NCBI GenBank assembly: GCA_958421325.1
Contig: CATZLO010000001.1
Coordinates: 7,373-71,372, forward strand
DNA length: 64,000 nt
Origin: an uncultured Bacilli bacterium
GTDB lineage: Bacteria; Bacillota_I; Bacilli_A; RF39; UBA660
Reading direction: 5' to 3'
Position numbers and translations under genes: made by a program. Below are positions 56,186 through 61,604 of this stretch, in pieces; positions within the stretch are counted from its first letter, which is position 1, and each line of letters begins with the position of its first letter. The notes below the pieces were generated by a model. That model searched no databases and was not told the DNA's origin. It was given only the letters and a program-made list of their open reading frames with translations.

Positions 56186-56231
56186 TAAAGTGTCTAATTT
56201 TAGATGCTTTTGTTTTATTTTTTAAAATTTA

Positions 56232-56260
56232 TTGCAACTAAATTAAACCTATGCTATAGT
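56232..56260 (+). promoter_or_regulatory. sigma70-like promoter TTGCAA-N17-TATAGT for first TasA-like gene
   Basis: Hexamers with 17-nt spacer about 25 nt before RBS AGGAGG. Confidence 0.4.
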
Positions 56261-56286
56261 AATAATAGAAGGAGGTTAGATATAGG

Positions 56287-56898
56287 ATGAAAGGTAATAA
56301 TTCTAAACAAGTATTATTATCAGTACTTGGAGTAGCAATTTTAGTTGTAGCAGTAGTTGGTGTATCATTTGCAGCATTTAGTTATAGTAAAACAGGAGAA
56401 AAAGTAAATACAATTACAACTGGTACTATTACAATGAGCTATAGTGAAACAACTAATGGTATTAATTTAACTAATGCGCTTCCAATGACAGATGGAGTTG
56501 GAATGGCTTTGAAGGAAACAAATCAATATTTTGATTTTACTGTAAATGCAACTATTACTGGTGATACAACAATTAACTATGCAGTTACAGCTACAAAAGA
56601 ATTGGGTAGCACTATTCCAGATACTGGAGTTAAAGTTTATTTAACTGATATGGACGGCGACGCTGATACTCAAATTGTAGCACCAACTAAAGTTAGTATG
56701 TTAACTAAAACTTCAAGTGATGCTTCTGGAGCCCCAGATGACCAGTATATGTTAACATCTAATACTTTTAAGACAACAAGTTCACATGATTATCGTTTAA
56801 GAATGTGGGTAGCAGATGATTATGTAGTTGGAACTGACGCTCAGACTTATAAGTTACGTGTAAATGTATATGGTTCTGCAGCAGCTCAAGCTAAATAG
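56287..56898 (+). CDS. TasA/CalY (camelysin)-like secreted protein, paralog 1
   Basis: SipW-type signal/anchor then AAFSYSKTGEKVNTITTGTITMSYSE parallel to TasA/CalY N-terminus (AAFNDIK...ASGTLDLS / FAFFSD...AAGTLDL); Thr/Ser-rich about 200 aa. Confidence 0.6.
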   Translation: MKGNNSKQVLLSVLGVAILVVAVVGVSFAAFSYSKTGEKVNTITTGTITMSYSETTNGINLTNALPMTDGVGMALKETNQYFDFTVNATITGDTTINYAVTATKELGSTIPDTGVKVYLTDMDGDADTQIVAPTKVSMLTKTSSDASGAPDDQYMLTSNTFKTTSSHDYRLRMWVADDYVVGTDAQTYKLRVNVYGSAAAQAK

Positions 56899-56904
56899 AA
56901 AATT

Positions 56905-56940
56905 AAAAAGTGTCTAATTTCTGACACTTTTTTTCTTTTC
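56905..56940 (+). terminator. Rho-independent terminator
   Basis: AAAAAGTGTC-TAATTTCT-GACACTTTTT + T-run. Confidence 0.6.
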
Positions 56941-57006
56941 TTTAAAAAGCCATTGCCTTGTAATTGTATTTTGTGATATAGTTATATTGTAGAAGGAGGA
57001 CAGAAA

Positions 57007-57615
57007 GTGAAAGATAATAATTCTAAACAAATATTATTGTCAGTGCTTGGAGTAGCAATTTTAGTTGTAGCAGTAGTTGGTGTATCATTTGCGGCATTTA
57101 GTTATAGTAAGACAGGAGAAAAAGTAAATACAATTACAACTGGTACTATTACAATGAGTTATAGTGAAACAACTAATGGTATTAATTTAACTGATGCGCT
57201 TCCAATGACTGATGAAGTTGGTAAGGCTTTGAAAGATGAAAATCAATATTTTGATTTTACTGTTAAAGCTGATATAACAGGAGATACAACAATTAATTAT
57301 GCTATTACTGCTACAAAAGAGTCAGATAGTACTTTGCCTGAAGATGGAGTAAAACTTTATTTGACTGATATGAATAATACTGCTGATACACAAATATTAG
57401 CACCTACAAAGTTTAATGCTATACCAAAAACTGGTGCAAGTGAGGCTTCAGGTGCTCCACAAGATCAAGCAAAATTACATACTGGTACATTTACTGCTAA
57501 TGCTACACATGCTTATCGTTTAAGAATGTGGGTAGCAGATGATTATGAAGTTAGTGGTACTTCTAAAACATTCAAAGTTAGAGTAAATGTATATGGCGCA
57601 GCTGTTGCTCAATAA
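57007..57615 (+). CDS. TasA/CalY-like secreted protein, paralog 2 (GTG start)
   Basis: First about 190 nt about 96% identical to paralog 1; RBS GAAGGAGGA. Confidence 0.6.
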   Translation: MKDNNSKQILLSVLGVAILVVAVVGVSFAAFSYSKTGEKVNTITTGTITMSYSETTNGINLTDALPMTDEVGKALKDENQYFDFTVKADITGDTTINYAITATKESDSTLPEDGVKLYLTDMNNTADTQILAPTKFNAIPKTGASEASGAPQDQAKLHTGTFTANATHAYRLRMWVADDYEVSGTSKTFKVRVNVYGAAVAQ

Positions 57616-57646
57616 AAAAGTGTATATAACACTTTTTTTCTTTTCT
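57614..57646 (+). terminator. Rho-independent terminator
   Basis: AAAAAGTGT-ATATA-ACACTTTTT + T-run. Confidence 0.6.
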
Positions 57647-59073: not shown

Positions 59074-59754
59074 GTGGGTGATAACTTGAGAAAATTTAAT
59101 AAAGAATGGTTGGTTAAATTTAATAATATATTACACTTTATTACAACTGTTTTGATGTATTCTATTTGTTTGATAATGATTATAGTGTTTGTTGTTTTTG
59201 TTGTTAATTTTGTAGATAAACAGTATAACCTAAAAAATGGTAATAGTAAAAAAGATTTGTTTTCAGCTTATACGATAGTCAGTCCCTCTATGGTGCCAAC
59301 AATTAATGTTTTAGATGTTATTGTTACTATGCGTGTAAATAATCCTGGAGATTTAGAAAAAGGAGATATTATAACATTTAATTCTACAGATTATAGATAT
59401 ACTGGGGTTTTGGTTACGCATAGAATCGTTGATATAGAAAAGACTAGCAGTGGAGATTATTTGTTTACAACAAAGGGAGATAATAATAATACTCAAGATT
59501 CTTCTAGAATTAGTTTTAATGAAATTTATGGTAGAGTTTTATTTAGAATACCTAAAATAGGATATATTCAATATTATCTTAGTTCTATTCTTGGTTGGGT
59601 TGCTATTATTATAGTACCAGCTGTAATGATTATTGGTTATGATATATATAAATTAGTTAAAACTCTGAAATCTAATGATAAAAAAGGGGTAGGTGATAAT
59701 AAAAAATCTAAAAGGGAAAGTAATATAGAGAAGAAAGGGAGGTTTAAAAGATGA
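59074..59754 (+). CDS. sipW: SipW-type (archaeal/ER-type, S26B) signal peptidase I
   Basis: N-terminal TM, SPSMVPT (SxSMxP) catalytic Ser region, GDIITF, LVTHRIV, TKGDNNN, C-terminal TM; pattern closely parallels B. subtilis SipW. Confidence 0.75.
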   Translation: MGDNLRKFNKEWLVKFNNILHFITTVLMYSICLIMIIVFVVFVVNFVDKQYNLKNGNSKKDLFSAYTIVSPSMVPTINVLDVIVTMRVNNPGDLEKGDIITFNSTDYRYTGVLVTHRIVDIEKTSSGDYLFTTKGDNNNTQDSSRISFNEIYGRVLFRIPKIGYIQYYLSSILGWVAIIIVPAVMIIGYDIYKLVKTLKSNDKKGVGDNKKSKRESNIEKKGRFKR

Positions 59755-60287
59755 AAAAGTTTATATTGTTAACTTTAGCAGGGATAGCTTTATTTGCTTT
59801 TATTTTTACAGCTTCAATGTTATGGTATAGTTTTTTTTATTCTGGTCAAGGTGTTAATGATTATAGTTCTATGGAATTTAAGTTGGATAGTGAAAGTAAT
59901 ACTATTGATGAGGGTGGATTGATTCCTTTAGATGATGAAACTGCAAAAATGCTTAAACCTTATGAGTTTAGTGTAAAAAACCATGGAAGTAGTGATGTAG
60001 TTTATAATATCTTATTAGAAGATGGTATAATTAGTGATGATGAAACTTATAGTAGTAAAGAATTACTCTCTAGGAGCCAATTAAAATATCAGTTATCTCT
60101 TAATAATCAATTTATTAAACATGGTAATTTAGATGATATAAAAAATAATATTTTGGATACTAGAAGTATAGTTCCTGGTGGAACTAATAATTATCAATTG
60201 CGTATTTATGTGTCTCAAGATGCTGTTAATACTAATTGGCAGAATAAATATTATCATTTTGAAGTTAGTATAAAGATGGAGGAATAA
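59751..60287 (+). CDS. divergent fifth paralog / TapA-like accessory candidate
   Basis: Start overlaps sipW stop (ATGA); signal/TM; C-terminal NYQLRIYVSQDA and HFEVSIK echo the YRLRMWVADDY / KLRVNVYG motifs. Confidence 0.45.
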   Translation: MKKFILLTLAGIALFAFIFTASMLWYSFFYSGQGVNDYSSMEFKLDSESNTIDEGGLIPLDDETAKMLKPYEFSVKNHGSSDVVYNILLEDGIISDDETYSSKELLSRSQLKYQLSLNNQFIKHGNLDDIKNNILDTRSIVPGGTNNYQLRIYVSQDAVNTNWQNKYYHFEVSIKMEE

Positions 60288-60292
60288 GGTTG

Positions 60293-60371
60293 AAAATTTA
60301 GTTATTTGTTTTTAATTAAATTTGTACCTTTCAGATAACTGGAAGGGTAAAGAAAGGAATGTTAGAAAATT
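60293..60371 (+). promoter_or_regulatory. conserved leader element copy B (hairpin CCTTTCAG-ATAA-CTGGAAGG, then GAAAGGAA RBS)
   Basis: About 80% identical to 47187-47271 including TTGAAAATTTA, hairpin and AAAGAAAGGAATGTTAG...ATTATGAAAA. Confidence 0.6.
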
Positions 60372-61061
60372 ATGAAAAAAATATTATTAGAATATGTTAA
60401 TGTATTTGCTTATACTATTATTGGTCTTATTTTTGGCCTTGCGTTTTTTCTATTATTTTTAAATTTTTATCATATGCAAGAACTTGATGCTAAAGTTGAT
60501 GTAACTTCTTATAATGAAAATAATAGAGTAAAAGTAGAAGAAAAAATAGCTACTATTAAAAATAATATAAATGTGTATAATCAATCTACTTACAATGGGA
60601 CACTTAATATTTATGGGCTTAATACTGTTCAGATAAAGTTACAAAATTGTCTTGAAATTTTAGAAAGTGACGAGGTGATGAAGTACTTTAAACTTGATAA
60701 AATAGGAGTAAAAGATAGCTATAATTTTTCTATTGATTTTAAAAATAGAATATTAAATGATTGCCTAGTGATGCAGATTAAGTCAATATTTAACACTGAT
60801 ACAGTTGCATCTTTACCTAATTTTTCTATTATAAGACCATTTGTTGAACTTGATATTGATACTTTGTTAGGGACTACAGATTATGTTCAAAGTAATATTG
60901 AAAATTCTGATCATTATTATTTTAGTACTACTAATAATAAAATTAATTTCTTTGATTTAGCTGAAGATAGTTATGCAGATGTAATGAACAGTTATCAAAG
61001 TTCTTTAGATTTGATGGTTGAAGTTTCAAATTGGTATAAAAATGTAGTTATAGGAGGTTAA
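60372..61061 (+). CDS. membrane-anchored hypothetical protein
   Basis: 229 aa, one N-terminal TM, no recognizable domain. Confidence 0.5.
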   Translation: MKKILLEYVNVFAYTIIGLIFGLAFFLLFLNFYHMQELDAKVDVTSYNENNRVKVEEKIATIKNNINVYNQSTYNGTLNIYGLNTVQIKLQNCLEILESDEVMKYFKLDKIGVKDSYNFSIDFKNRILNDCLVMQIKSIFNTDTVASLPNFSIIRPFVELDIDTLLGTTDYVQSNIENSDHYYFSTTNNKINFFDLAEDSYADVMNSYQSSLDLMVEVSNWYKNVVIGG

Positions 61062-61062
61062 G

Positions 61063-61506
61063 ATGAAAAAAATATTTAATGTTTTATTTTATTTTTTAAA
61101 ATTTATTCTTTTAATTGTTGCATTTGGCCTTTCATTATTTATTTTAATAAGGATGAATGTTAGATTAGAAAAAAATATAATAAGTGTTTTACCTGAATTT
61201 GTTCCCTTTATTATTTTATTAATTGTCTTTATTATAAATATGTTTTTTAAACAAGTTGGAGTTACTAAAAATTTGTTTTATAACTTAACTTGTTGTTTGG
61301 CTTTTGCAACAATTATTTGTGTTTCTTTGAGAGCTATTTTTGATACTAATATGGTTTTAAATGGAAAATATGGATACGGAATAGATTTTAATTTTTTTGA
61401 TAATTTTATAGCATATATGAAGATTATGTTATATGGTTTGCTAGTTGCAAATGTATTACTTATGTTTGGAAAAAATGATAAGGATGATGAAAAGTCTAAG
61501 ATATAA
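61063..61506 (+). CDS. polytopic membrane protein, hypothetical
   Basis: 147 aa, about 4 predicted TM helices; start adjacent to upstream stop. Confidence 0.5.
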   Translation: MKKIFNVLFYFLKFILLIVAFGLSLFILIRMNVRLEKNIISVLPEFVPFIILLIVFIINMFFKQVGVTKNLFYNLTCCLAFATIICVSLRAIFDTNMVLNGKYGYGIDFNFFDNFIAYMKIMLYGLLVANVLLMFGKNDKDDEKSKI

Positions 61507-61604
61507 AAGAAGCTTAGGCTTTTTCTTTACTTTATGTTATAGTACTATTATAATTATTAATAAATAATGTGATTGAAGTTTTAGAAATGAAAGGTAGAGA
61601 AAAT

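Follow-up and report, generated by a model that had tools for sequence, protein, structure and literature searches.

A candidate multi-subunit surface-fibre locus with a SipW-like signal peptidase in uncultured gut Bacilli

The closest described counterparts of the locus analysed here are the tapA-sipW-tasA operon of Bacillus subtilis, which encodes the subunit of the TasA fibre (PDB 8AUR), and the sipW-bsaABC(RSD) genes of Clostridium perfringens. SipW-dependent polymers of BsaA are known (PMC7395162), and the presence of multiple TasA/BsaA paralogs in a single SipW operon has been noted, with the suggestion that they form heteropolymers (10.1101/2024.11.04.621531). We analysed a locus of this general kind in a window of 64,000 nucleotides (nt; the whole stretch of DNA that was examined, in whose coordinates positions are given below) on contig CATZLO010000001.1 of an uncultured human-gut Bacilli bacterium (assembly GCA_958421325.1). 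The locus comprises four tandem paralogous genes (P1 to P4), a gene for a SipW-like signal peptidase (here sipW), a more divergent paralog (P5) and genes for two membrane proteins of 229 and 147 amino acids (aa). We hold, with moderate confidence, that these genes would encode a peptidase-processed surface fibre built of several types of subunit, which may be joined by TasA-like donor-strand exchange. An earlier sequence-only reading of the window had called the arrangement unusual; as multi-paralog SipW/TasA-like operons had already been described in the study cited above, it is less unusual than was claimed.

Proteins of the locus and their possible relation to TasA

Eight open reading frames (ORFs) on the same strand lie between a gene for a 3D-domain protein and ksgA. 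Their lengths were reproduced by independent gene calls on three conspecific contigs, which also agreed on the ATG start of P3. The genes are as follows.

55598-56185: gene for a 3D-domain protein in the yabE position, 195 aa
56287-56898, plus strand: P1, 203 aa, candidate major-type fibre subunit
57007-57615, plus strand: P2, 202 aa, GTG start, candidate second major-type subunit
57695-58306, plus strand: P3, 203 aa from the ATG, putative third subunit class
58396-59028, plus strand: P4, 210 aa, putative conserved single-copy subunit class
59074-59754, plus strand: SipW-like signal peptidase I of the endoplasmic reticulum (ER)/archaeal type, 226 aa
59751-60287, plus strand: P5, 178 aa, overlapping the peptidase gene by 4 nt
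60288-60371, plus strand: spacer between P5 and the 229-aa protein gene, 84 nt, two hairpins
60372-61061, plus strand: gene for the 229-aa protein
61063-61506, plus strand: gene for the 147-aa protein, the final gene of the coupled sipW-P5-229aa-147aa unit
61569-62402: ksgA, flanking the locus on its 3′ side

The four paralogs of about 200 aa that the sequence-only reading had pointed out were all recovered, each with its own ribosome-binding site and with terminators after P1, P2 and P3, and their secretion is predicted. P2, P3 and P4 are 76%, 59% and 36% identical to P1, respectively. P1 carries a signal peptide with a predicted cleavage site SFA/AF after A29 (the slash marks cleavage), followed by a nine-strand beta-sandwich, and the mature subunits are predicted to be about 170 aa long. 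An AlphaFold2 model of P1, computed from a 69-sequence alignment (predicted local distance difference test [pLDDT], 88.9; predicted template modelling score, 0.76), shows a helix at residues 5-32 and a low-confidence stretch at about residues 31-50 (pLDDT 52-62) ahead of the nine strands. Fold comparison with this predicted model, a check proposed along with the earlier reading, placed the TasA fibre first among PDB entries.

The similarity to TasA is concentrated at the N terminus. Profile comparison by hhalign against the TasA sequence or 35 PF12389 proteins gave probabilities of 59-67% (E values of 5e-5 to 9e-5) over the N-terminal 60 columns only; with alignment A2 against the 35 PF12389 proteins, the values were 66.6% and 5.4e-5 over the same 60 columns. 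In these alignments, the family pattern FA/AF...N.I..GTI.M...NL.N..P falls on WA/AF...(N).F..GTLDL...NLSNLKP of TasA, and the family FA/AF corresponds to the TasA WA/AF at A27/A28. The aligned stretch coincides with the cleavage site of TasA and its donor strand at residues 28-38 (PMC9674648). The paralogs thus appear to carry the combination by which the superfamily is recognised, namely a SipW-type signal peptide, a cleavage site and then a conserved N-terminal strand. The claim that the N-termini follow the TasA/CalY/camelysin pattern accordingly stands as far as the alignment with the TasA signal peptide, cleavage site and donor strand is concerned; the part of it that would place the paralogs in a curated family hidden Markov model (HMM) does not.

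Across 243 clade proteins, conservation reaches at least 90% at each of G25, S27, A29, N41, T45 and G46, and variation is greatest in two blocks, residues 121-165 and 181-190. E54 and K116 are, like N41, each at least 90% conserved in the same set (codons at 56407-56409 for N41, 56446-56448 for E54 and 56632-56634 for K116). It is speculative to regard these three residues as an Asn-Glu-Lys isopeptide lock of the BsaA kind: their spacing differs from that of N35/E56/K74 in BsaA, and the TasA-family consensus, in which no isopeptide is formed, also has an Asn at the aligned donor-strand position. The family itself is large and nameless. Not one of 1,739 close relatives of the paralogs has a name or a Pfam domain, a profile search for the family collected 4,989 cluster representatives at 50% identity, and a look-up of ten family clusters returned no names.

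The peptidase is the best-characterised component. It matched TIGR02228 (archaeal/ER-type signal peptidase I) with 90.8 bits (cutoff of 51.85; E value of 7.9e-26), while the Bacillus SipW equivalog NF046067 gave 94.5 bits, below its cutoff of 190; the protein is therefore SipW-like rather than a SipW orthologue. Residues 67-145, the catalytic core, were matched by human SEC11A and SEC11C in PDB. The motifs SPSM (S72), T-H-R (H116) and G-D-N-N (D136) are invariant across 60 orthologues, and these boxes, which we take from published SipW and SEC11 work, presumably hold the Ser/His/Asp catalytic residues. Membrane segments lie at both ends of the protein, which also has a Lys-rich tail. On these sequence matches we class it as a genuine ER/archaeal-type signal peptidase I, with catalysis predicted from the motifs. 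The dedicated SipW-type peptidase of the sequence-only reading was hence confirmed by a score above the TIGR02228 cutoff and by the invariant motifs, and the loss of catalytic Ser or His, which had been named as evidence to the contrary, was not observed, both residues being present. Matches of residues 95-141 (window 59356-59496) by phmmer to HisF and to designed HisF-derived TIM barrels (E values of about 4e-5) were taken as chance.

P5 was linked to the other paralogs by BLASTP (E value of 3e-5) and, using independent alignments of P5 and of P1-P4-type proteins, by hhalign (97.5%, E value of 7.5e-12, 165 columns). As judged by these comparisons, P5 is a true divergent paralog of P1 to P4. 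Of 57 loci, nearly all show an overlap of 4 or 1 nt between its gene and sipW. Searches of Pfam and NCBIfam with P5 gave no match to TapA or any other family. The suggestion of a translationally coupled, divergent fifth paralog was therefore borne out by homology and overlap, while its placement in the TapA family by sequence was not; the position of P5 and its donor-like N-terminus nonetheless make it a candidate for an initiator or anchor subunit that would be TapA-like in function. Downstream of P5, the 229-aa protein has an N-terminal membrane helix and a helical-bundle domain and is restricted to the clade, and the 147-aa protein has about four membrane segments by hydropathy and conservation. 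In most loci their genes are 1-3 nt apart. Because both are tightly coupled to sipW and P5 in about 56 species, the two proteins probably belong to the system, and their inclusion in the unit by the sequence-only reading was upheld by this coupling together with their membrane segments.

Several results weigh against a TasA-type fibre. P1 to P5 had no matches in Pfam, with PF12389 (Peptidase_M73) among the families missed, and among 69 diverse family members only two touched PF12389, the better at an E value of 0.0048. The NCBIfam TasA model NF046066 met the paralogs at an E value of 0.019 and 14.4 bits, against a cutoff of 450, and over residues 7-66 only; five of the 69 members touched this model (best E value of 0.011). 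Membership of P1 to P5 in Peptidase_M73/TasA, for which an HMM search had been proposed, was consequently rejected, the searches of Pfam and NCBIfam with the paralogs and the 69 members having returned marginal matches only. The TasA profile match is moreover unstable and spans about 60 columns, some 25 of which are signal peptide. When a clade-only alignment was compared with the TasA family, hhalign gave 12.9% and an E value of 0.0022, and this drop in probability to 13% marks the sequence link to TasA as fragile. Relatives that would inform on the 229-aa and 147-aa proteins were not found, and the fibre itself is predicted from the genes.

Gene order, copy number and transcription units

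To place the locus in a wider context, we scanned one genome per species with search patterns from a 13-sequence alignment and annotated the loci with HMMs built from the window proteins. The scan returned 74 loci, all in uncultured gut metagenome-assembled genomes (MAGs) that carry the label Bacilli or 'Tenericutes'; Candidatus Onthousia and Clostridium sp. CAG:451 are among these genomes, and one of the loci is on a closed 1.52-Mb chromosome. In GTDB, these genomes presumably belong to order RFN20 or a neighbouring order. About 56 loci share the gene order tatD-(3D)-[1-7 paralogs]-sipW-P5-229aa-147aa-ksgA-yabG. The 3D gene is missing in some relatives, where tatD is followed directly by the paralogs. 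Almost everywhere, the sipW, P5, 229-aa and 147-aa genes overlap or touch (-4 to +4 nt).

In complete loci, we counted the paralogs that precede sipW. Four copies were commonest (24 loci), three were found in 10 loci and five in 9, two in 2 loci, and one, six and seven copies in 1 locus each. The copies are not interchangeable. A P4-type copy is the final one before sipW in 54 of 59 loci, in related loci it is usually preceded by a P3-type copy, and the number changes only in the P1/P2-type copies. The four-fold amplification of a fibre subunit proposed earlier is thus better described as a set of differentiated classes, of which four copies are the commonest number in a range of 1 to 7. One relative alone has insertion sequence elements within the array: in the genome with the closed 1.52-Mb chromosome (OZ006970.1; coordinates 11539-15734 of locus L001), ISL3-family and IS110-family transposase genes and two unannotated ORFs lie inside it and split the paralogs into 2 + 3 copies.

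The sequence-only reading had further regarded the locus as an inserted island. Neither an integrase, nor a tRNA, nor flanking repeats were seen at the locus, and the guanine-plus-cytosine content is slightly raised, at 0.31-0.33 over P1-P2 versus about 0.22-0.30 in the flanks. As about 56 related genomes have it at this position and in this gene order, the locus is ancestral to the clade. Internally it is differentiated; a recent island and a simple four-fold amplification are both rejected.

Each of P1 to P4 is preceded by a promoter-like site with a TG-extended -10 element and by a strong ribosome-binding site. Hairpins with U-tracts were found 3′ of the 3D gene, P1, P2 and P3, with folding z scores of -3.4 to -5.5. 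These elements are listed below; the promoter-like sites are consensus matches and, overall, such sites are not enriched (52 observed versus 49.6 expected from shuffles).

56186-56230, plus strand: terminator hairpin and U-tract after the 3D gene, z -3.44
56232-56260, plus strand: promoter-like site for P1, TTGCAA-17-TATAGT with TG extension, consensus match only
56905-56932, plus strand: intrinsic terminator after P1, z -5.13
56953-56982, plus strand: promoter-like site for P2, TTGCCT-18-TATAGT, TG-extended
57614-57638, plus strand: A+U-rich terminator hairpin after P2, z -4.86
57646-57674, plus strand: promoter-like site for P3, TTGCTA-17-TATATT, TG-extended
58315-58333, plus strand: intrinsic terminator after P3, z -5.52
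58340-58368, plus strand: promoter-like site for P4, probably also for the sipW operon, TTTACC-17-TACAAT, TG-extended

The terminator after P2 was missed by a strict scan because it has fewer than three G-C pairs. On the 3′ side of P4 no terminator was found (z -1.1), and P4 is therefore probably transcribed together with the peptidase operon. Terminator, promoter and gene form a repeat unit of about 700-720 bp. The terminator after the 3D gene is 80% identical to that after P1 (direct repeat D5, 720-nt spacing) and marks the boundary of the duplication unit. P1 and P2 are 91% identical over their first 300 nt, and their C-terminal halves have diverged. No genes of the region vary more among three conspecific assemblies than P1 and P2 (97.9-99.3% identity, versus 99.6-100% for most neighbours), which, in a tiny sample of three, hints at diversifying selection or gene conversion. 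Control by an invertible promoter or phase variation was considered and dropped, the inverted repeats in the locus being short, A+T-rich and chance-like.

The spacer between P5 and the 229-aa gene had been read as a conserved hairpin leader. It folds at -16.9 kcal/mol (z -2.56) and is identical in three conspecific contigs, and an Rfam search of the locus, spacer included, gave no match. No such distance separates the two genes in 56 other loci, where they either overlap or leave a gap of no more than 14 nt; the spacer is species-specific, and the idea of a conserved leader was abandoned.

The flanks consist of the 195-aa 3D-domain protein on one side and ksgA, yabG and veg on the other, in a wider neighbourhood of yabG, veg, spoVG, yabP, yabQ and spoVT. 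Each gene from tatD to yabG is 99.8-100% identical between the window and a conspecific human-gut MAG (GCA_900760545.1). Within its 195 aa, the 'yabE' product combines one 3D domain (Pfam, 29.9 bits) with a signal or anchor segment; YabE of B. subtilis is much longer and has several domains. Between metG and tatD, a hydrophobic ORF of 58 aa (window 54565-54741) is called in every related contig examined and had no family match. Farther upstream, at about 28 kb, the genes switch from the minus to the plus strand (window 27846-28762, on to about 37635), and the next ORFs correspond in size to dnaA, dnaN, recF, gyrB and gyrA (466, 375, 371, 640 and 816 aa), which makes it probable that the window contains the replication origin.

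A proposed fibre and the alternatives

In the fibre model that we favour, P1 to P5 would be exported through Sec, and the locus peptidase would remove their signal peptides, which end in a conserved G-x-S-x-A, in P1 probably between A29 and A30. Cleavage would free the conserved N-terminus AFSYSKTGEKVNTITTG, a region of low confidence in the monomer model, and the freed segment (residues ~30-45) could insert as a donor strand into the beta-sandwich of a neighbour, as in TasA, BsaA and archaeal bundling pili. The P1/P2-type subunits, with their own promoters and terminators, their varying copy number and the most diverged C-terminal halves, would make up the shaft, and the single-copy classes P3 and P4 may serve as adaptor or minor subunits. 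P5, being translationally coupled to sipW, might have the role that TapA has for TasA, as the starting point or anchor of the fibre. More speculatively, the 229-aa and 147-aa membrane proteins could provide an anchoring or assembly platform, and long proteins that combine the N-terminal domain with immunoglobulin-like repeats and lack LPXTG could dock on the fibre via the same module.

These long proteins were surveyed among the best 150 of the 4,989 family representatives. In 62 of them (41%), the N-terminal domain sits on a protein of 300-1743 aa. Some long members carry Big_2 or Flg_new repeats, and no C-terminal LPXTG-like signal was found in any long member of this set. Many end in a recurring motif, ...VRPV.YLKS..I.GGDGT..NPY.L, and in a rabbit-gut MAG a 1,120-aa member is encoded inside the paralog array itself (locus L058, 2133-5495). 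Several genomes have extra family members elsewhere, with no peptidase gene nearby.

Such proteins also feature in an explanation that we consider unlikely although it deserves a hearing, namely that the paralogs form a non-polymerising surface coat or matrix. They would then be anchored by an uncleaved helix or released as monomers, and the domain would act as a stalk close to the membrane, on which a lineage free of sortases presents variable surfaces and C-terminal adhesin repeats. The long and very hydrophobic N-terminal helix (residues 5-32) agrees with this, as do the 41% share of long, multidomain representatives without LPXTG, the report that the orders RFN20 and ML615J-28 lack sortases (PMC10868615), the weakness of the TasA link at the sequence level and the variable residues 121-165 and 181-190, which fit exposed antigenic surfaces. 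However, a dedicated signal peptidase gene is fixed beside the paralogs in about 56 genomes, and the small residues at -3 and -1 (S27 and A29) are conserved and fall on the cleavage site of TasA in the alignment. Strong conservation extends over the next 15 residues, which are unstructured in the monomer model and for which an anchored stalk would have no need. A fibre or coat made during sporulation, which would decorate the spore surface as an appendage or part of the outer coat, seems improbable to us. The locus does lie among yabG, veg, spoVG, yabP, yabQ and spoVT, and some sources label TasA homologues 'spore coat-associated protein N', but this neighbourhood is ancestral origin-proximal synteny of Bacillota, so that adjacency says little. 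The promoter-like sites are of the sigma-70/sigma-A type with TG-extended -10 elements, motifs of sporulation sigma factors not having been searched for. This proposal in any case concerns timing and location and is compatible with the fibre mechanism.

Two further readings have very little to recommend them. That the paralogs are archaeal or type IV pilins, with the hydrophobic N-terminal helix kept as the filament core, strikes us as highly improbable. The family profile weakly matched Sulfolobus-type pilins in PDB (6nav and 8tib, E values of 0.08-0.34), and two members matched Pfam Pilin_N at 0.051, but these matches are insignificant and rest on the hydrophobic segment. A conserved G/A before the hydrophobic stretch was not found, the eight locus proteins gave no match to a prepilin peptidase, assembly ATPase or platform protein, and the locus peptidase is a type I signal peptidase; we rejected this reading. 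Hardest of all to credit is the view that the paralogs are secreted camelysin-like proteases, which draws on nothing beyond the historical name of the TasA/CalY family (Peptidase_M73). There was no match to PF12389 or any peptidase model, inspection of the translations revealed no HExxH-type metal site (P1 has a single His), and the protease assignment of camelysin is itself held to be a probable misidentification. We therefore discarded it as well.

A broader version of the fibre model, doubtful and offered as conjecture, would make the 170-aa domain a general 'plug-in' module for sortase-free display. In these gut Bacilli of small genome size, from orders reported to lack sortases, the peptidase would bare the donor strand on the five paralogs and on dozens of long adhesin-like proteins. 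Strand exchange would then string all of these onto a single fibre, with P5 and the two membrane proteins as its anchor and with the copy number and sequence of the shaft varying under host immune or phage pressure.

If the fibre model holds, TasA-like donor-strand fibres would extend to abundant, wholly uncultured Bacilli of the human and animal gut with genomes of about 1.5 Mb. The locus draws attention to a large protein family, of about 5,000 clusters at 50% identity, that is covered by no Pfam or NCBIfam model. Its ordered subunit classes and two new membrane components offer a testable model for how a fibre is started and anchored in monoderm bacteria, and the presence of the N-terminal module on many long adhesin-like proteins suggests surface display independent of sortases. 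Nothing is overturned by this, SipW-dependent TasA/BsaA fibres and multi-paralog operons being known already.

Comparison with known systems

The chaperone-usher pili (Fim/Pap) resemble the proposed fibre by analogy only, in their amplified major subunit, single-copy adaptors, initiator or terminator subunits and donor-strand exchange; they have no sequence relationship to the locus, which lacks a chaperone, an usher and an outer membrane. The archaeal bundling pili (AbpA, PDB 7UEG) and cannulae (CanX, PDB 9H8B) differ in being archaeal and in having no dedicated peptidase nearby, and their similarity scores to the locus family are low. HHpred moreover links AbpA to PF12389 at 97%, unlike the locus family.

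The sipW-bsaABC(RSD) genes of C. perfringens are closer. As in the locus, the operon includes paralogs of the secreted subunit, which is about 23 kDa in size and SipW-dependent (by prediction here), and the relation of BsaA to TasA is likewise remote and visible only by sensitive or structural methods. In contrast, the vWA protein (BsaC), the two-component system and the link to type IV pili have no counterpart here, and the N-E-K triad of BsaA could not be assigned, N41, E54 and K116 being conserved but spaced differently. The BsaA/TasA family of Kivimaki et al. is a set of 2,172 proteins.

The most detailed correspondence is with tapA-sipW-tasA of B. subtilis. There, too, an ER/archaeal-type peptidase is encoded with its substrates, and the substrate N-terminus can be aligned with the TasA signal peptide, A/AF site and donor strand. 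The beta-sandwich fold, predicted here, has the TasA fibre as its best PDB match, and next to the peptidase gene is a divergent minor paralog, placed where TapA acts. The differences are nevertheless considerable. The subunits of the locus match neither PF12389 nor NF046066, their mature forms would be about 170 aa long versus about 234 aa for TasA, and there are five paralogs in at least four classes rather than one major subunit plus TapA. Unlike TapA, P5 is itself a true paralog of the subunits. The genes also stand in another order, two membrane proteins are added, and the peptidase, at 94.5 bits, falls below the Bacillus SipW equivalog cutoff of 190. Collectively, the locus most likely represents an unannotated, distant branch of the known SipW/TasA-type system, distinguished by accessory genes of its own, by subunit classes in a set order and by a constant place near the origin.

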